DNA of 64,000 nt from Planctomycetota bacterium (GTDB lineage Bacteria > Planctomycetota > UBA8108 > SXIK01): contig CBDCXR010000004.1 in the NCBI GenBank assembly GCA_965223845.1, forward strand, positions 3,232,001 through 3,296,000, written 5' to 3'. This document shows positions 13,158-20,239 of the stretch, in pieces. The notes beneath the pieces are model-generated. The model was given only the letters and a program-made list of their open reading frames with translations. It ran no database searches and had not been told where the DNA came from. The position numbers were made by a program, and so were the translations under genes. How positions within the stretch are numbered: position 1 is the first letter of the stretch; each line of letters starts with the position of its first letter.

Positions 13158-13985
13158 TCAGTGCTTCGCTTTCGCCGCCCGGATCGCCCGCAGAGCCGCC
13201 AGCGCCTCCGCCCGCACATCGGCGTTCTCGCTCCGGGCGAGGCGCTCGAGTGCCGATTCGCTTTCGGCGACGTTCGCCTCGCCGAGCCGAAACGCGGCGT
13301 AAATCTGCAAGTGACGATGCGACGCGCCCTCGAGCCATCCGAGCAGGACCTTGATCTGCTCCTCGGCGAGCGGCCGCACGGAGCGAATCTCGATCGCGTG
13401 GCCGGCGTCATCGCTCGAGATCGTCGGCGCCTTCTCGGGATCCACGCATTTGCTGATTCGGAGAAGCGCTTCGAAGAGAGGAGTGACGGAAACGACGAAT
13501 CCCGGTGCGCCGGGCATCTCCATCTCCTCGATGTTCAACTCTTCGACGCACTTCCACCATGCGCTCAAGCCCTTATCGAGCGGCTCGGATCGCATGCCAC
13601 TTCGGTGCTTGTCGAGTCCACGGATGATGTCGCGCTTCGTGAGCTCGCCCTCGCGCCAAATCGTGGCTCGGTAGAGGTCCGTTTGCAGCGCATCGAAGGT
13701 GACGTCGATCCCGAAGACGTCGGGAGTCTCGAGGAGAAGCGCTACGAATCGCTCGAGAGCGCGCCGACGTCCGCGCTCCGATCGCAGGAACTCCTCTGCC
13801 GCTCGTCGCTCCGGGGACTCCGGAGGGAACTCCGAGTACGCGAGGACGAGATCTGGTTCTGAGTCGAGCCCCCGAACGAGTCGGCGAACGCGAATCTCGT
13901 CCACGAAAAAGAGCGAGCCTACCCCGACCGCGATCACGATCGCGCCGAGCCCGAACACGGTCGCCCGGCTGAGTCTTCTTGGCAT
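13158..13985 (-). CDS. Membrane-anchored hypothetical protein with C-terminal HEAT repeat
   Basis: Within ORF 13158..14144. ATG13985 (MPRRLSRATVFGLGAIVIAVGVG) gives an N-terminal TM; C-terminal YAAFRLGE...SENADVRAEALAALRAI. Confidence 0.7.
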   Translation of the reverse strand: MPRRLSRATVFGLGAIVIAVGVGSLFFVDEIRVRRLVRGLDSEPDLVLAYSEFPPESPERRAAEEFLRSERGRRRALERFVALLLETPDVFGIDVTFDALQTDLYRATIWREGELTKRDIIRGLDKHRSGMRSEPLDKGLSAWWKCVEELNIEEMEMPGAPGFVVSVTPLFEALLRISKCVDPEKAPTISSDDAGHAIEIRSVRPLAEEQIKVLLGWLEGASHRHLQIYAAFRLGEANVAESESALERLARSENADVRAEALAALRAIRAAKAKH

Positions 13986-14100
13986 CGACGTGCTGTCGCC
14001 TCTCTCGTTCGCCGCCCCCTCGCCCCGAATCCAACGCAGTTCGGGACGTTCCGCGAGAGTCAGAGTATCAAGGATTCCACGAATTCGCAGAAAGTCAGAG

Positions 14101-14124
14101 ACCGATCGCGAGTCTATCGATCTA
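14101..14124 (+). promoter_or_regulatory. Candidate ECF-type promoter (ACC-N17-TCTA)
   Basis: ACC 14101-14103 and TCTA 14121-14124 upstream of the ECF gene; same pattern at 18478-18500. Confidence 0.35.
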
Positions 14125-14176
14125 CAGGGTCGGTGGTGCGGCATTCCGACCCGAGCCGAGGATCGATCGAGACCTC

Positions 14177-17032
14177 ATGAAAACGCAGCCCAGTTCCTCT
14201 CGTGTGGACTCCGCGATCGTCAAATCGATCCGCGCCGGACGCACCGAGGATTTCGAGAAGCTCGTTCTCCGCTGGCAGAAGCCTGCATTCGCAGTCGCGG
14301 TTGCGGTCGGAGTTCCCCCAGATCACGCTGCGGACGCACTGCAGGAAGCGTTCGTCCGAGCGCTTCGCGAGATCGAATCCCTCCGAGATCCCGGTTCGTT
14401 CGGTCCGTGGTTTCTCGCGATCGTCCGCAACGTCGCGCGGCGCCAGCTCGCGGATGCTCGCCGGATGGTGCTTTCACCGAACGTCGAGCTCAGCGCGGAG
14501 TCGTACTCCGATTCATTCGAAAAGCGAGAGTTCAATCGCTATGTCTGGTCGAAGGTCGACGCGCTTCCGGAGGCTCTACGCGAGGCGCTCGTCCTCTACT
14601 ACTGGGAGGGTGAGTCCGTGCGCAGCGTGGCGCGCGCGCTCGGGACCACGGCGGCGGCGGTCAAAAACCGTCTCCACAAGGGACGCGAAATCCTGAGGGA
14701 GAGACTGTGGCGCGAAATCGGAACCTCGATTCGCGACATGCTCCCTTCTGCGCGCGAGTGGAAACGCGGTGCGCGCCGCGTCTCCCTCATCGCAATCGCG
14801 AGTCTCCCCGCCGCTTGGACTCCGGTAGCGGCGGCCGGAGTGCACTCCGCCGCGACGACCGCCGTCTCGTCCGTGGCGGCCGAATCCACGGTGTCAGGAG
14901 GTCTCCTACTTATGAGCGGCAAAGTCGCACCGTCGATCGCGATCGGCTCGGTTCTTCTCTTTCTGACGGGGTTCTTCGCGGGCTACTCCATGGAGGAGCC
15001 GCGCCCCGAGAACAACTCGAAGGCTCCTACCGTAGTCGCGACCGAAACTCCCGCGCGCGCGGCGGCGCCGCAGACGGCGAACGATCTCGGGAGCCGGAGC
15101 GGAAACAGAGTAGACGACGCGCCGGCCGAGGTCGCCGTTGTTCGAGCTCCGCCGGACGAAGAGGTCACGACCGGAGCCTTGCGCGTCTCAGCGGTGTGGG
15201 CGCAGACGAACGAACCCGCCGCGGGGGTCCGCATCGAAGTCGAGCCTCGCGGTACGACCTTCCCACGCTACGCCGATCTCGCCGGCACAACGGACGATCG
15301 AGGCGTCGCCGTCATCGCGGCCGTTCCGGCCGGAATCGCGACCGTGCGAGCCGATCGCGCGTGGCCGCGGGGGCACGTGCGCGCTAGTCGCGCGGAGATT
15401 GCCGCCGGCGAGACGACCGAGTTTTTTCTTCGCCTCGAAGATCAGATCACCGTGGCGGGTCGCGTCGTCGACGCCGACGGTAGGCGCGTCCCCGACGCCG
15501 AGATCTGGCTCACTCGGAGCACCTTCGATCCGCATCAATCCGCGCGCATCTCAGCCTCGGACGAGAACGGCGAATTCTCTCTCCGCGGGGTCGAGAGCGG
15601 GCGCTACGTGTTTGCGCGGAAAGACGGTTTCGAGCCGTCGAAGATTCACGCCGCTAGAGGCGAGAGCGGCGACACGATGGTGCTCGAGCTTCAGCTCCCC
15701 GGTCGCGGGGGTGCGGTCGCCGGTCGCGTCTTCGCTCCCGATCGCAGCCCGGTGGCCGGAGCGCTCGTCGTGCTCGGGGATCGCCCCGGGATGAGCGGAG
15801 CGTACATCGCCCCGCCCGCTCCAATCGCGCTTCGCTCGGACCCCGACGGAGCCTTCGCTCTCGCGGGCCTTCAGCCCGGCCGCGTTCCCTTGCTCGTTCG
15901 GGCACCTGGACTCGCGCCGAGAGATACGTTCGTCGACGTGCAAGCGGGCGTTGAGGTCGAAGTCGACATCGAGCTCGAGCCGGGTGCAAGCCTCGCCGGA
16001 CGCGTCACCGACGCAAGCGGCTCACCCATCGAGCGCGCGCGGGTCGAGGTCGCGGTGGTTGAGGATCCTCTGCGTACGAATCCCGTGAATACCCACACGT
16101 GGACGGATGCTCGCGGCGATTTCGTCATCGAAGGACTCGCCGCAGGTCCGACTCCGGTCGCCATCAGCGCTCGCGGACGGCAGTCGTACCGAGAATCCGT
16201 CGAGCTCGCGCTCGGAGAGACCATCGAGATCGACGTCGAGCTTCGCGGGACCGTCACCCTCCGTGGCCGCGTCGTGTTCGAGGACGGAAACCCGATGACG
16301 AACGGGATCGTCATCGTTGCGGGCGTCTGGGAAAAGCTCGACCGTGAAGGGCGCTTTTCGGTGGAGAACGTCGAAGAGCGCGACTACTCCCTCTCGGTGA
16401 GAGAGCGTGAGCAACGGTTCGACTGCTTCCGCGCGGACGTCCGACCGTCGGAGGAGGAGATCACGATCGTCGTCCCGGAAGAAAACCGTGCGACCGCGTT
16501 CGTCGCGGGGAAGATACTCGACGCCGACGGAAGCGCGGTTTGGAAGGCAGAAGTTCTCTGCCTGAAGAAGGATCCCTGGCACGAGAGCAGCGTGCGATCC
16601 GGGTTTTTCGGCGGATTTCGGGTCGGACCGCTTCCTCCGGGTGACTACCGTGTGGCCGCGAAAACGAGCGCCGGCGCGAGGACGTGGCTCACGCGAACCA
16701 TCCGCGTCGAAGCAGGCGAATCGGTCGATGTCGGTGAGTTCAAGCTCGCCGCGGGCGGAGCATTGCGCACCGAGTTCGCACCCGGAGCGCGACAAGAGGG
16801 TCTCTGGCTCCTCGTGCTCGACAGCGACGATCTCCCCGTCGTCGCGGACCACGTAACGGCTGAGCGTTCACGGACGGATCCGGTCGTCGCGGGAAGGTAT
16901 CGCGTCACTCTTCGTCGTGGCGGGAAGGTCGCGTTTGAGCAATCCGTCGAGATCGAAGCGGACGCCGAGACGGTTCTTCGCGTCGGTGCGGACGACATCG
17001 CGGACGACACCACAGACGAGGAAGCTCCATGA
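14177..17032 (+). CDS. ECF sigma-70 factor fused to TM segment and tandem carboxypeptidase-regulatory-like beta-sandwich repeats
   Basis: Sigma2 (AADALQEAF, FGPWFLAIVRN), sigma4 (LPEALREALVLYYWEG, VKNRLHKGR), TM (IAIGSVLLFLTGFFAG), repeats (GRVVDADGRRV, GRVFAPDRSPV, GRVTDASGSPI, GKILDADGSAV). Confidence 0.9.
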   Translation: MKTQPSSSRVDSAIVKSIRAGRTEDFEKLVLRWQKPAFAVAVAVGVPPDHAADALQEAFVRALREIESLRDPGSFGPWFLAIVRNVARRQLADARRMVLSPNVELSAESYSDSFEKREFNRYVWSKVDALPEALREALVLYYWEGESVRSVARALGTTAAAVKNRLHKGREILRERLWREIGTSIRDMLPSAREWKRGARRVSLIAIASLPAAWTPVAAAGVHSAATTAVSSVAAESTVSGGLLLMSGKVAPSIAIGSVLLFLTGFFAGYSMEEPRPENNSKAPTVVATETPARAAAPQTANDLGSRSGNRVDDAPAEVAVVRAPPDEEVTTGALRVSAVWAQTNEPAAGVRIEVEPRGTTFPRYADLAGTTDDRGVAVIAAVPAGIATVRADRAWPRGHVRASRAEIAAGETTEFFLRLEDQITVAGRVVDADGRRVPDAEIWLTRSTFDPHQSARISASDENGEFSLRGVESGRYVFARKDGFEPSKIHAARGESGDTMVLELQLPGRGGAVAGRVFAPDRSPVAGALVVLGDRPGMSGAYIAPPAPIALRSDPDGAFALAGLQPGRVPLLVRAPGLAPRDTFVDVQAGVEVEVDIELEPGASLAGRVTDASGSPIERARVEVAVVEDPLRTNPVNTHTWTDARGDFVIEGLAAGPTPVAISARGRQSYRESVELALGETIEIDVELRGTVTLRGRVVFEDGNPMTNGIVIVAGVWEKLDREGRFSVENVEERDYSLSVREREQRFDCFRADVRPSEEEITIVVPEENRATAFVAGKILDADGSAVWKAEVLCLKKDPWHESSVRSGFFGGFRVGPLPPGDYRVAAKTSAGARTWLTRTIRVEAGESVDVGEFKLAAGGALRTEFAPGARQEGLWLLVLDSDDLPVVADHVTAERSRTDPVVAGRYRVTLRRGGKVAFEQSVEIEADAETVLRVGADDIADDTTDEEAP

Positions 17033-18078
17033 ACGCAGGGCGATGGATCGGAGTAGCGGTAGGAGCGGCGGTCATCATCGCAGTGGGGTTCTTCGCCGGC
17101 CGCGCGATGCGGGGCGTCGGCGAGCATCCCTCCGGCGCGGAAGGATCGTCGCGAGACGCGCCGAACGACACAGAAACGCCGGAGGAGACTTTGGGGCCGA
17201 TCGCATCGCCCATCTCCCCTGCCGCACCGACCGAGACCGTTCGTCCGAGCGAAGACGGGTCCGCGTCGCCCGCGCGCCGTGGACTCGCCGAGCTTTCGGC
17301 AGACGACTGGAAGGTCATCCGAGCCGTCCTCGAGATCGAAATGCCGTCGTCGCTCGAAAACCTTCGCCGCCTCTCCTCAGACCGGGCGTTCGCAAATGCG
17401 CGAGAGACCGTCCGCGGGAAGTTTCCGACCGTGGAGCCGGACGGACGGGGCGAGCTCACGCACCCCGCCGTGGTGACTGCGCTCATCGAAGCGCTGCTTG
17501 AGAACGCGGGAGTCCCGCTCGACGAAGAACAGTGGAAAGCCGCGGAGGAGCTCGTCGCTGACTACACGGATGCCCTCGCCGACGTCCAGAACCTTCACGG
17601 CGCCAATACGCCGAAGTTCGAGAAGGTCATCGACGAGGTCGGGCTCAAGCAAGACTTCCTCGACGCTCTGTCGGAGGGCCTCTCGGAGCCGCAGCGAACT
17701 GCACTCCGGAATGTCTCGCCCGCGGGAGAGGACTTTCCCGCGATCGCGTCTCCGCTTGTGATGGCCGACTTCGAAATCCACGAGGTACCGACCGACTCCC
17801 TCGACGAGCTTCGCGCCGGCTTCGCGAGCGAGCTCGCCGACGATTTCGAAATCTCCCTCGAATCCGCCGCGGTCCTCAATGAGCGCTATTTCGCGGCGAT
17901 CGCCCCCCTCCTCCGGAACGGTGGAGAGAGCTGGTCCACCATCGACCGCGCTCTCCTCGCGGGTCGGGCGCAGATCGAACTCTTCCGGCCGATCCTCGAG
18001 CTTCCCGATCTCGACGATCGCGCCCGGCGCAAGATCGTCGAGCGACTGCGCTGGCTGGTGATGGTTCCGGCCGAGTGA
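17029..18078 (+). CDS. Membrane-anchored helical hypothetical protein, homologous to the C-terminal domain of 18512..20239
   Basis: ATGA overlap with the upstream gene; N-terminal TM (WIGVAVGAAVIIAVGFFAG); LDEEQ and LSEPQ motifs. Confidence 0.8.
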   Translation: MNAGRWIGVAVGAAVIIAVGFFAGRAMRGVGEHPSGAEGSSRDAPNDTETPEETLGPIASPISPAAPTETVRPSEDGSASPARRGLAELSADDWKVIRAVLEIEMPSSLENLRRLSSDRAFANARETVRGKFPTVEPDGRGELTHPAVVTALIEALLENAGVPLDEEQWKAAEELVADYTDALADVQNLHGANTPKFEKVIDEVGLKQDFLDALSEGLSEPQRTALRNVSPAGEDFPAIASPLVMADFEIHEVPTDSLDELRAGFASELADDFEISLESAAVLNERYFAAIAPLLRNGGESWSTIDRALLAGRAQIELFRPILELPDLDDRARRKIVERLRWLVMVPAE

Positions 18079-18477
18079 GATTCTCACCTCGGCACGACGA
18101 CAACATCCCGCACTCGAGCGCACCCGATCGACGCGGCCCTTGAGCGGGAGCACCCGCTCCGAGAGAGATCTCGAGCGCGGCGCCGTTTCCCGCGTCGGCC
18201 GCACCGGGAAGGCGTTGAAGCGCCCGCGGAGCGTAGAGCTCAGAGGAGAGCGCTCGGATGGTGTCGACGCGGTCACCACGGTCTCCGCGGTCCGGGAGTG
18301 ACCGTCGGAAACGCGCTTCGCCTTCGGGCGAGGTCCATCATAAGCTTGGGCCCAGACGCGCTTTCGGAGCTTTCGTTCCCGTTTTGGGTCGCTCTGCTTC
18401 GAGTTGTGATCTCCCCGCCACGCCGATCGCGGCGCCCAGCCGTCCCGCTCCGCTACGCCCGAGAGAAAACCCGCATC

Positions 18478-18500
18478 ACCGCGCCTCCGCTCGGGCTCTA
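18478..18500 (+). promoter_or_regulatory. Candidate ECF-type promoter (ACC-N16-TCTA) with very short leader
   Basis: ACC 18478-18480, TCTA 18497-18500, ATG at 18512 with no Shine-Dalgarno. Confidence 0.35.
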
Positions 18501-18511
18501 TCTCATAGACC

Positions 18512-20239
18512 ATGAACGAACCTCCCGCCCCTTTCCTCGATCCCGACGCGCTCCTTGAAAACGGAGCGTGGATCCGCGAGTTGGCGCAGCGTCTCGTCGC
18601 GGATTCTTCCCGGGCGGACGACGTCGCACAGGACGCCTGGCTGTGCGCGGCCACTCGCACACTCGACGCGCCGCGGCGACCGCGTTCGTGGTTGTTCACC
18701 GTCGTCCGCAACCTCGTCGCCCGGTCGTATCGCGCCGATGCTCGCCGAGCCGCACGCGAACGATCCGTCGCCCGACCCGAGCGTGTGGACTCGAGCGCCG
18801 AGGCGATCCTCGAGCGCGCGGAACTCCAGCGTCAGGTCACGTCGGTCGTGCTCGAGTTGCGAGAGCCTTACCGCTCGACCGTGCTTCTTCGCTACTTCGA
18901 GGGTCTCACTCCAGAGTCGATCGCTCGACGCGAGGGAGTCGCTCCGGCGACGGTGAGATCTCGTCTCGGGCGCGCGCTCGGCGAGCTGCGCACACGTCTC
19001 GACCGGGAACATCGCGCGTGGACGATCCTCGCGTCTCCCCTCCTCGGATCTCCGACAACGACGGCCGGTTCGGGTTCGGTCGGATTCGCCACTGCAGGAG
19101 CGATCGCCATGAGCGAAAAAACTTTCTGGGCCGTCGCGGGCTGCGCCCTTCTCGGAACGGCGGTGGGCTGGGGCGTGCACACCGCGCTCTCTCCCGCCGA
19201 TGTCTCCGGTCGCCTCAATACGGCACTCGCTGCGGCTAAGGCACTCGAGGCCGAAGTCGAGCGCCTGCGCGACGAGCTCGACGAAACGAGTGACCGAGCG
19301 GGTCGACTCAAGGACGAGAACGAGGCTTTGCTCGCTCGCGTCGAAGACCTGACTCGTCGCTCGGTCGAGACGCAAGCGCCGTCCGTACCCGCCTCGTCCG
19401 CTGCCGCGGTTGGCGCTACCGACACGCTGGACTGGAAGAGCCTCGCCCAATTGGTCCGAGCGAACGCGGAGCTCTTGAGAAAACGGCAGGACACCCTGAG
19501 TTCAGCGGAGGAAGCGGCGCTCGCGTCGCTTCGCGGTAGAATTCTCGCCCTGGGCGCGGCGGCTAAGAGCGAATACGAGCGCCCGCTGCTCGTCCCCGGG
19601 TTTCTCAGCGATTTCGCCGAGGCGATTCTCGGCTCGGGCCTCGGCCTCGACGACGAGCAGCGCGAACTTCTGCGCGAACTCACCGAAGAGATCGAATCGA
19701 ATCTTCCCGCTCCCGACGCAGAGCTCTCACCGACCGAGCGTTACGCCATGCGCCGAGATCTCGTCGATTCTCTTCACGAGGAGCTCGAGACTCTGCTCGA
19801 TGAAGAACAGCTCGAGGCTTGGCCGCAACTCCAGGAGTACTCGCGCGGCCTCCTCCGGTACGGCGACCAGATGAGAATCGGGATCGATACTCCGCCAGAG
19901 AATTTCGTACGGCTCTGGGCGTCGAACACACTCCGGGCCGGAGAAACGGCCATCGACTTCGACTCGCTGGCACCGAGCGTCGAGCGCTTCTACGAAGACG
20001 TGCGCTCGGTGCTCGATCAGCACGGCGCGACGGATCCCGAGCGGTACGACAATCTAACACCCGAAAGTCGTCGACAGCTCCGAAACGAGCTTCTTCGCCT
20101 GCAGGGGACATTCGACCGCGAGGCGCTTCCGCTCGTCCCCGAGGACATTCGCGCGCGGTATCTCGATCGACCTCCGATGATCCTGGAGTTTCGGCCGGGG
20201 ACGAGCGTCGGAGTGACCGTGCGGGGAACGGTGTTCTGA
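18512..20239 (+). CDS. ECF sigma-70 factor fused to TM, coiled coil and helical extracytoplasmic domain
   Basis: ADDVAQDAW, RSWLFTVVRN, LREPYRSTVLLRYFEGL, TVRSRLGRA; TM FWAVAGCALLGTAVGWG; heptads (LEAEVERLRDEL). Confidence 0.9.
   Translation: MNEPPAPFLDPDALLENGAWIRELAQRLVADSSRADDVAQDAWLCAATRTLDAPRRPRSWLFTVVRNLVARSYRADARRAARERSVARPERVDSSAEAILERAELQRQVTSVVLELREPYRSTVLLRYFEGLTPESIARREGVAPATVRSRLGRALGELRTRLDREHRAWTILASPLLGSPTTTAGSGSVGFATAGAIAMSEKTFWAVAGCALLGTAVGWGVHTALSPADVSGRLNTALAAAKALEAEVERLRDELDETSDRAGRLKDENEALLARVEDLTRRSVETQAPSVPASSAAAVGATDTLDWKSLAQLVRANAELLRKRQDTLSSAEEAALASLRGRILALGAAAKSEYERPLLVPGFLSDFAEAILGSGLGLDDEQRELLRELTEEIESNLPAPDAELSPTERYAMRRDLVDSLHEELETLLDEEQLEAWPQLQEYSRGLLRYGDQMRIGIDTPPENFVRLWASNTLRAGETAIDFDSLAPSVERFYEDVRSVLDQHGATDPERYDNLTPESRRQLRNELLRLQGTFDREALPLVPEDIRARYLDRPPMILEFRPGTSVGVTVRGTVF

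Follow-up and report, generated by a model that had tools for sequence, protein, structure and literature searches.

The regulation of planctomycete extracytoplasmic function (ECF) sigma factors with long unrelated extensions, of which a genome holds dozens, is an open question in the passages of three papers that deal with it (PMC8999054; PMC7671368; PMC7826278). Two genes in a 64,000-nucleotide stretch of a Planctomycetota bacterium (GTDB UBA8108; SXIK01; assembly GCA_965223845.1, contig CBDCXR010000004.1, positions 3,232,001 to 3,296,000 of the forward strand; hereafter the window, with positions counted from its first letter) raise this question in a specific form. Does each of them specify a single, membrane-tethered sigma factor, or does a second start codon, placed in frame at the boundary between the sigma factor and the membrane helix, yield a sigma-less protein from the same gene? 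The latter was the original prediction, made from the letters of the window alone. We find that the boundary quite probably houses a functional internal translation initiation site that is kept by selection, with two proteins made per gene; this reading came through every sequence-level test applied to it, namely those of the Shine–Dalgarno (SD) sequence, the codons, RNA folding and the duplex with ribosomal RNA.

Putative internal start sites in two ECF sigma fusions

Gene 1 (14177..17032; forward strand, as are all features of the two genes) is an open reading frame (ORF) of 951 residues, in which an ECF sigma factor is fused to a single membrane helix and CarboxypepD_reg repeats, four stretches of which are recognized by Pfam. 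Its sigma-2 domain (residues 29-96; 14261..14464; PF04542, E 9.2e-11) and sigma-4 domain (residues 124-175; 14546..14701; PF08281 at residues 124-171 and PF04545 at 128-175) are followed by a linker (14702..14911) that opens with a conserved motif (PSAREWKRGARR...), common to two paralogues in the same genome, and then becomes rich in Ala, Ser and Thr. The membrane helix, V250-Y270 (14924..14986), has a mean Kyte-Doolittle hydropathy of 1.99 over a 19-residue window. Gene 2 (18512..20239; 575 residues) combines an ECF sigma factor with a single membrane helix, a stretch resembling a coiled coil and a domain that matches no known family, the only Pfam families found in it being Sigma70_r2 and Sigma70_r4_2. 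Here the sigma-2 domain spans residues 17-78 (18560..18745; PF04542), the sigma-4 domain residues 108-160 (18833..18991; PF08281, that is, Sigma70_r4_2, at residues 108-157, and PF04545), the linker positions 18992..19108, and the membrane helix, called from a hydrophobic window, residues 204-222 (19121..19177). In both genes Sigma70_r2 and Sigma70_r4_2 exceed the Pfam cut-offs and no other sigma region is listed, which is the composition of ECF (group 4) sigma factors.

The last codons of each linker contain an SD sequence, read directly from the DNA. In gene 1 it is AGGAGG (14896..14901; codons tcA GGA GGt), 10 nucleotides before the in-frame ATG of Met246 (14912..14914); in gene 2 it is AGGAG (19096..19100; codons gcA GGA Gcg), 8 nucleotides before the in-frame ATG of Met200 (19109..19111). 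These positions and spacings are exactly those given in the original prediction. The Pfam domains and helix calls likewise agree with its placing of both Met residues after sigma-4 and a linker, and each Met does open a Met-Ser-x-Lys segment followed by a hydrophobic stretch. The proposed sigma-less isoforms would comprise 706 residues in gene 1 (to 17032) and 376 residues in gene 2 (to 20239). The further claim, that the 5' starts are weak in SD, holds as well, in that neither gene has a GGAG, GAGG or AGGA core 4-12 nucleotides upstream of its 5' start. The duplex computed with the tail of 16S ribosomal RNA amounts to -11.5 kcal/mol at the internal site of gene 1 versus -5.9 at its 5' start, and to -6.6 versus -2.5 kcal/mol in gene 2.

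An AlphaFold2 model of residues 1-233 of gene 2 gives confident sigma domains, a helical extension of sigma-4 to about residue 178, disorder at residues 180-201 (pLDDT below 50) and a helix at residues 203-226. On the strength of this model, the SD codons would lie in a floppy linker and Met200 at the cytoplasmic mouth of the helix. A predicted complex of the short isoform of gene 2 with itself scored 0.29, the mark being 0.32. The original prediction had described the sigma-less isoform as exported; the isoform itself fits the evidence, and a membrane-anchored form of it fits better than an exported one, no signal-peptidase site being evident. The helix of gene 2 opens with TFWAVAGC (19121-19150), which includes a lipobox-like V-A-G-C; as the Cys would come after only about 11 residues of the short isoform, this is probably too short for a lipoprotein signal.

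The weight of these two sites depends on how SD sequences are used in this genome. The contig that carries the window is 7.87 Mb long with a G+C content (GC) of 65%, and the 16S ribosomal RNA ends with the canonical CCTCC tail. GGAG lies 4-13 nucleotides upstream of 18.3% of 4672 first start codons as against 5.3% of 20932 internal ATGs, with a peak 9-14 nucleotides before the start. Among 391 genuine-looking gene starts of the signal-anchor type (281 ATG, 87 GTG and 23 TTG), 43.7% have a GGAG/GAGG core 5-11 nucleotides upstream. Going by these frequencies (43.7% and 18.3%), a minority of genes use an SD. The longer AGGAG is found 4-13 nucleotides upstream of 6.2% of first start codons and of 1.1% of the 20932 internal in-frame ATGs, and AGGAGG before 0.26% of the latter; matches at two Met residues named beforehand are therefore unlikely by chance. 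Two such pairs of SD and ATG anywhere in the 64-kb window would not be improbable, and the question of chance for the two sites is settled by counts across the family.

Recurrence of the boundary site and its codon-level signal

Fusions in this genome were found with a hidden Markov model (HMM) of the sigma domains built from its own paralogues, as ORFs in which 120 or more residues and a hydrophobic helix come after sigma-4. A fusion was flagged where an in-frame start codon (ATG, GTG or TTG), preceded at 5-11 nucleotides by a GGAG/GAGG core, fell between 9 codons before and 3 codons after the start of the helix. The exhaustive scan returned 22 sigma-helix fusions, 18 of them flagged (82%), while the same rule flagged 73 of 1610 other segments of the same ORFs (4.5%) and 67 of 1188 other internal helix starts in this genome (5.6%). 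Across 20 genomes of the same order, 18 of 29 fusions were flagged, versus 74 of 1458 control segments; two batches sampled from the phylum gave 23 of 30 (control 105 of 1517) and 26 of 40 (control 79 of 1819). Pooled, the survey covers 121 fusions from 37 genomes and 21 families, with 85 flagged sites spread over 32 genomes and 19 families (binomial P 5e-80 against a 5.2% background, a figure that is overstated since the genes are kin). Because the samples from the phylum and the order risk motif enrichment, two extra genomes were surveyed with Pfam PF08281 alone, which makes three genome-wide surveys free of sampling bias; in these two the site was flagged in 4 of 11 and in 7 of 10 fusions with a helix, which with this genome comes to 29 of 43. 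Fusions with the site are common to genomes of different families at only 43-48% identity. The boundary site thus occurs in these fusions beyond chance. A profile search of the phylum matched 111 of 121 genomes, most of the matches listed lying in open frames of 500-1900 residues, and the family of these fusions is probably planctomycetal, to judge from a protein-atlas lead for a neighboring DUF1501 gene and from the likeness to published planctomycetal ECFs. A search of genome contigs for related loci gave distant ECFs only, among them some from Bacteroidales and Terriglobia.

The flagged sites resemble real translation starts in several respects and exceed them in some. The start codons at the 18 sites of this genome (13 ATG, 3 GTG and 2 TTG) mirror the mix at the 391 anchor-type gene starts. 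The frequency of an SD is higher at the fusion boundaries than at those gene starts (82% versus 43.7%; P 3e-4), and the register is tighter, GGAG standing exactly at -12 in 15 of 18 sites as opposed to 24 of 131 genuine starts. The SD stands at a working distance from the in-frame start codon throughout, with gaps of 10 and 8 nucleotides in the window and of 5-11 nucleotides in the 85 flagged fusions of the 121. In the 18 genes the mean SD:anti-SD duplex is -9.9 kcal/mol at the internal site and -4.7 kcal/mol at the 5' start, the internal one being the stronger in 17; an SD-like core precedes the 5' start in no more than 8 of the 22 fusions. Folding, computed at 59 of the 85 flagged sites (those available before the second phylum batch), points the same way: 63-nucleotide segments at the boundary site have a mean of -15.9 kcal/mol versus -20.8 elsewhere in their ORFs, stability is lower than in the rest of the ORF at 86% of the 59 sites (z = +1.02 over the 59), and their GC is 58.8% versus 65.1%. 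Neither difference is seen at 148 other places in this genome where Lys or Arg precedes a helix start, the z values there being -0.17 (folding) and +0.10 (GC). An internal promoter within the sigma coding part was also considered and is unsupported: an ECF-type promoter pattern matches upstream of the sigma factor in 6 of 22 fusions and within its coding part in 2 of 22, set beside 265 of 3000 random 300-mers.

A further view comes from the codons themselves, in fusions anchored on protein features only, that is, on a Met followed by Lys or Arg beside a membrane helix. Across the 72 fusions so defined, the prevailing bases from -12 to -9 are G (.90), G (.94), A (.75) and G (.83). The A falls at -10, the third base of a codon, in genomes with a GC of 55-75% that mostly have G or C at such positions. 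Gly occupies residue -4 (or -5/-3) in 68 of the 72 and is spelled GGA in 54, compared with 20.4% GGA in the same ORFs. At -4 proper it is GGA in 52 of 64 (81%) and at -5 in 11 of 11, whereas flanking Gly residues are GGA in 33 of 125 cases 6-20 codons upstream and 34 of 126 cases 4-20 codons downstream, i.e., 26-27% (Fisher P 2e-15). Residue -3, in turn, is variable (Gly 24, Ala 21, Val 15), yet all these residues have codons that begin with G, the first base being G in 83%. The original prediction had proposed this very comparison of Gly codons among homologues; instead of GGC and GGG at background rates, GGA was found enriched before the Met. GGC and GGT almost never occur at Gly -4. Six fusions keep the residue motif with GGG in place of GGA, giving GGGG or GGGA for GGAG (L119(-), L120, L135, L152, L157 and L175), and the site in such fusions might be weaker through G-U wobble pairing with the anti-SD.

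The fusions in which the boundary Met is missing provide a complementary test. The protein motif G-x-x-x-[V/L/I] before Lys or Arg is present in 19 of 49 such fusions; there, 13 of the 14 Val residues are encoded by GTG, compared with 32.7% in the background, and 3 of the 4 Leu residues by TTG, compared with 9.6%. Where a non-start codon (CTC, GTC or ATC) takes this place, as in three motif-bearing genes, GGAG is missing as well (Fisher P 0.001). This replacement by GTG and TTG, together with the absence of GGAG from the genes with a non-start codon, indicates that SD and start codon are kept together and lost together. By these codon tests, their conservation goes beyond what the protein sequence requires, as is expected of internal initiation.

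Two probable products per gene and the alternatives

The fusions share a common plan. A sigma-2/sigma-4 core continues in the same frame, by way of a flexible linker, into a single helix and a variable domain that lies outside the cytoplasm. The linker ends with codons that spell the SD, usually in the form GGA-Gnn-nnn-nnn before ATG, GTG or TTG, and the Ser/Gly-x-Lys-Lys after the start, with the helix, makes up a complete N-terminal membrane anchor. If the internal start is used, one product, initiated at the weak 5' start, would be the full-length, membrane-tethered sigma factor; the other, initiated at the stronger internal start, would lack the sigma factor but share its anchor and outer domain, and in it just three or four cytoplasmic residues precede the helix and the first residue is formyl-methionine even where the codon is GTG or TTG. 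By analogy with the IutY hybrid discussed below and with the usual anti-sigma pathway, the tethered sigma factor may be freed by regulated intramembrane proteolysis through site-1 and site-2 cleavage, and site-2 proteases of the M50 family are encoded in this genome. The sigma-less copy may share the same signal, protease or oligomer, and could then serve as a decoy, a partner or a setter of the threshold. Alternatively, the outer domain may do its work in the short form, whose state the sigma-tagged copy would report.

One elaboration of this plan, which we put forward tentatively and consider possible at best, is that the sigma core, linker, internal start and helix form a self-contained one-gene signaling cassette, in which an excess of the sigma-less isoform, supplied by the stronger internal site, sets the threshold for proteolytic release. 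There, the sigma-less isoform would be the working partner of the tethered sigma factor, be it as a decoy, a co-oligomer or a substrate competitor. As the cassette ends at the helix, fusion to any outer domain would yield a sensor together with its own buffer in one step, and this, if true, would account for the explosive spread of these fusions in the phylum with shuffled outer domains. More generally, if two products are made, the number of genes understates the number of proteins for the whole family, and in annotation about 70% of these fusions in the sampled genomes would be flagged as two-product genes. The conserved boundary start is, in any event, a concrete and experimentally testable hypothesis on the regulation of extended ECFs.

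A first alternative is that the site is a functionless relic of gene fusion: a duplicated sigma-2/sigma-4 cassette would have read through into a gene for an anchored or secreted protein, whose ribosome-binding site, start codon and anchor would survive as fossils. Such captures are proposed for planctomycetal ECFs by Pinto & da Fonseca, 2020 (PMC7671368), whose scenario (d) invokes an in-frame downstream gene, and the resemblance of the start-codon mix and the Met-x-x-Lys anchor to ordinary gene starts, as well as the differing outer domains among paralogues, are what a relic would leave. A fossil SD, however, should decay to the GC-rich codon background, and yet GGA stands at -4 in 81% of cases as against 26-27% nearby, GTG and TTG are chosen where the Met is replaced, and the site is kept in fusions common to different families at 43-48% identity. 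Nor would a relic account for an SD more frequent than at genuine anchor-type starts (82% versus 43.7%), for the common -12 register (15 of 18 versus 24 of 131) or for RNA that is specifically unstructured at the site. The split form from which a relic would derive was found nowhere: no sigma gene stops just before the internal start in the 12 loci inspected, and the outer part of gene 2 has just two homologues among 20 relatives, both of them fusions, with no stand-alone form seen. In a collection of 5.8 billion proteins only gene 2 itself was returned at near lengths, by a word-limited search that leaves room for a stand-alone form. The 12 loci, most with stops inside the match, turned out to hold ordinary sigma genes, with a zinc anti-sigma gene or other, apparently unrelated frames downstream. 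We consider the relic unlikely as an account of the present site. The original prediction had itself offered it, and the part that stands is that it may describe the origin of the fusions, in line with scenario (d) as set out in that paper's passages; the maintenance of synonymous sites is the part it leaves unexplained.

Two further alternatives concern what is translated. The signal could act at the level of the protein, as a Gly-(Gly/Ala/Val)-x-x-Met-Ser-x-Lys hinge or protease site at the face of the membrane, or as an SD-like elongation pause that aids targeting, with a single product in either case. Conservation of Gly -4 (64 of 72) and Lys +3 (51 of 72) as residues speaks for this, as does their retention with GGG for GGA in, for example, L120, L135 and L157. 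Yet residue conservation explains neither the choice of GGA, nor the G as first base of the variable residue -3, nor the choice of GTG or TTG where Met is replaced; a pause at this place would act before the helix is synthesized and would not aid targeting, and, judging from the geometry, it would not need a start codon at a fixed distance of 7-10 nucleotides. We hold this improbable. Conversely, the sigma part could be a decaying, untranslated leader, the real gene starting at the internal Met. The 5' starts of genes 1 and 2 do lack an SD, and only 8 of the 22 fusions have an SD-like core there; against this, 220 of the 391 genuine-looking anchor-type gene starts in this genome also lack one. 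Both sigma domains exceed the Pfam cut-offs, the frame is open from the sigma factor to the outer domain in 121 of 121 fusions, and GC at third codon positions (GC3) is equal in the sigma and C-terminal parts (0.735 and 0.754 in gene 1; 0.741 and 0.734 in gene 2). Because the sigma part is by these measures (Pfam matches, equal GC3 and open frames) still coding, the full-length form should be made too, and an untranslated leader is very improbable indeed.

Several points nonetheless weigh against two products per gene. The role of the short isoform is pure inference, and even a good SD need not make initiation efficient within an ORF that is itself being translated. The site is absent from 36 of the 121 fusions, and one related genome has it in only 4 of 11, so it is not obligatory. 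About 5% of segments are flagged by chance, and in a few flagged fusions of the phylum sample (L111, L113 and L156, for example) the motif is not visible by eye. The phylum sample was drawn with a profile made from site carriers only and spanning the boundary, and the order sample from queries with genes 1 and 2 that also span it, so that the motif may be enriched in both; the survey of one genome (G003) scored 150 of 204 candidates. Paralogues and orthologues are non-independent, so that P values are overstated, and gene starts, membrane helices and 5' starts were called by crude, home-made rules.

Genomic setting and comparison with known systems

The linkers of the 22 fusions in this genome fall, by eye, into about three types according to the motif after sigma-4: PSxRxW-RR..L, W..L.PL, and RRGV...AP..L...LGK. 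All three end in the same design of SD and start, so this design is either older than the types or was reached more than once. The post-sigma-4 motif of the linker (14702-14800 in gene 1; 18992-19050 in gene 2) might be an autoinhibitory or membrane-facing segment; in gene 2 it is modeled as the helical extension of sigma-4. A search of a protein atlas with the outer part of gene 2 returned unnamed clusters only. In the related complete genome G003, the fusions L164 and L165 (G003:C1, near 2.81 Mb and 6.12 Mb) have apparently near-identical boundary regions on opposite strands, about 3.3 Mb apart, and look like a recent duplication; both are without the internal start.

Between the two fusions lies a gene for a protein of 349 residues (17029..18078, forward strand) with no Pfam family and an N-terminal anchor (MNAGRWIGVAVG...) much like the starts of the internal isoforms. 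Its start overlaps the stop of gene 1 (ATGA), with GAGGAA at 17018-17023, 7 nucleotides upstream. Two paralogues of it are present elsewhere in the genome, near C4:2499434 and C4:2502478, and it shows no significant similarity to the outer part of gene 2 (E 0.097). Gene 1 is immediately preceded by a divergent ORF of 328 residues (13158..14144, reverse strand) with a weak match to HEAT_2 below the Pfam cut-off. Contig C1 (15,005 bases) has a GC of 48%, versus 63-68% in the other three contigs, and may represent a plasmid, a phage or contamination from binning.

Turning to known systems, we found, in the literature searched, no description of internal initiation at the sigma/membrane boundary of ECF fusions. 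Fused sigma/anti-sigma proteins, extended planctomycetal ECFs, internal starts and sigma isoforms are each known already. Internal starts of this general kind are familiar from ClpB, IF2 and CheA, where an in-frame start with its own SD yields an N-terminally truncated isoform, and ArcB reportedly has such an isoform, detected by retapamulin profiling. The likeness lies in an SD-bearing start inside an ORF that gives a shorter protein sharing the C-terminal part. In those proteins both isoforms occupy one compartment, whereas here the short form would lose its DNA-directed domain entirely; and, unlike them, the design recurs in dozens of paralogues per genome. For ClpB, the isoforms of M. tuberculosis are mentioned in the abstract of PMC6168691.

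Among fused sigma factors, a close parallel in architecture is the ECF243 protein IutY from Pseudomonas putida, which combines sigma and anti-sigma parts and depends on Prc and RseP for its activation (PMC8999054). According to the passages on it, IutY too unites an N-terminal ECF sigma factor, one membrane helix and a domain outside the cytoplasm in one polypeptide, and its sigma factor is freed by regulated intramembrane proteolysis, a step that for the genes of the window we propose by analogy. It differs in its FecR-type anti-sigma domain and its outer-membrane receptor partner; a Pfam scan (E <= 0.01) detected no FecR family in gene 1 or gene 2. A second product from an internal start is not described in those passages. 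In the actinobacterial fusions ECF48, ECF52 and ECF53, exemplified by SCO4117 (see also PMC5826349), the ECF sigma factor is likewise fused to membrane helices and a long outer extension, and activation is presumed to be proteolytic in the passages concerned (PMC8999054). These belong to another phylum, however, and are described there as having, between sigma-4 and the membrane, an anti-sigma module of the zinc-finger (ZAS-like) type, whereas the linkers of the present fusions are 40-75 residues long, partly disordered and without a Pfam family, and the Pfam scan of genes 1 and 2 detected no zinc-finger or anti-sigma family.

Genes 1 and 2 most likely belong to the family of planctomycetal extended ECFs. 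As far as the passages on these proteins (PMC7671368) and on ECF57 (PMC7826278) go, the likeness extends to the many paralogues, the conserved core and the long, variable extensions. ECF57 is characterized by two conserved cysteines, and some of its members are described as having WD40-like repeats in the extension; no WD40 family was found by Pfam in gene 1 or gene 2, and the repeats are ascribed to those members only. In the passages of both papers the extension is captured sequence or a protein-interaction domain, and a conserved SD and start at the boundary go unmentioned. Should two products be made, this published view of the extensions as merely captured sequence would change, and sigma factors would join the few bacterial regulators that have programmed isoforms truncated at the N-terminus. 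A precedent among sigma factors themselves is that of SigR/SigH (Casas-Pastor, 2021; PMC7826278), where, in the passage concerned, an ECF sigma gene likewise gives two proteins through the choice of start codon. There the alternative start lies upstream and adds an N-terminal extension; in the planctomycetal fusions it would lie downstream and remove the sigma factor.

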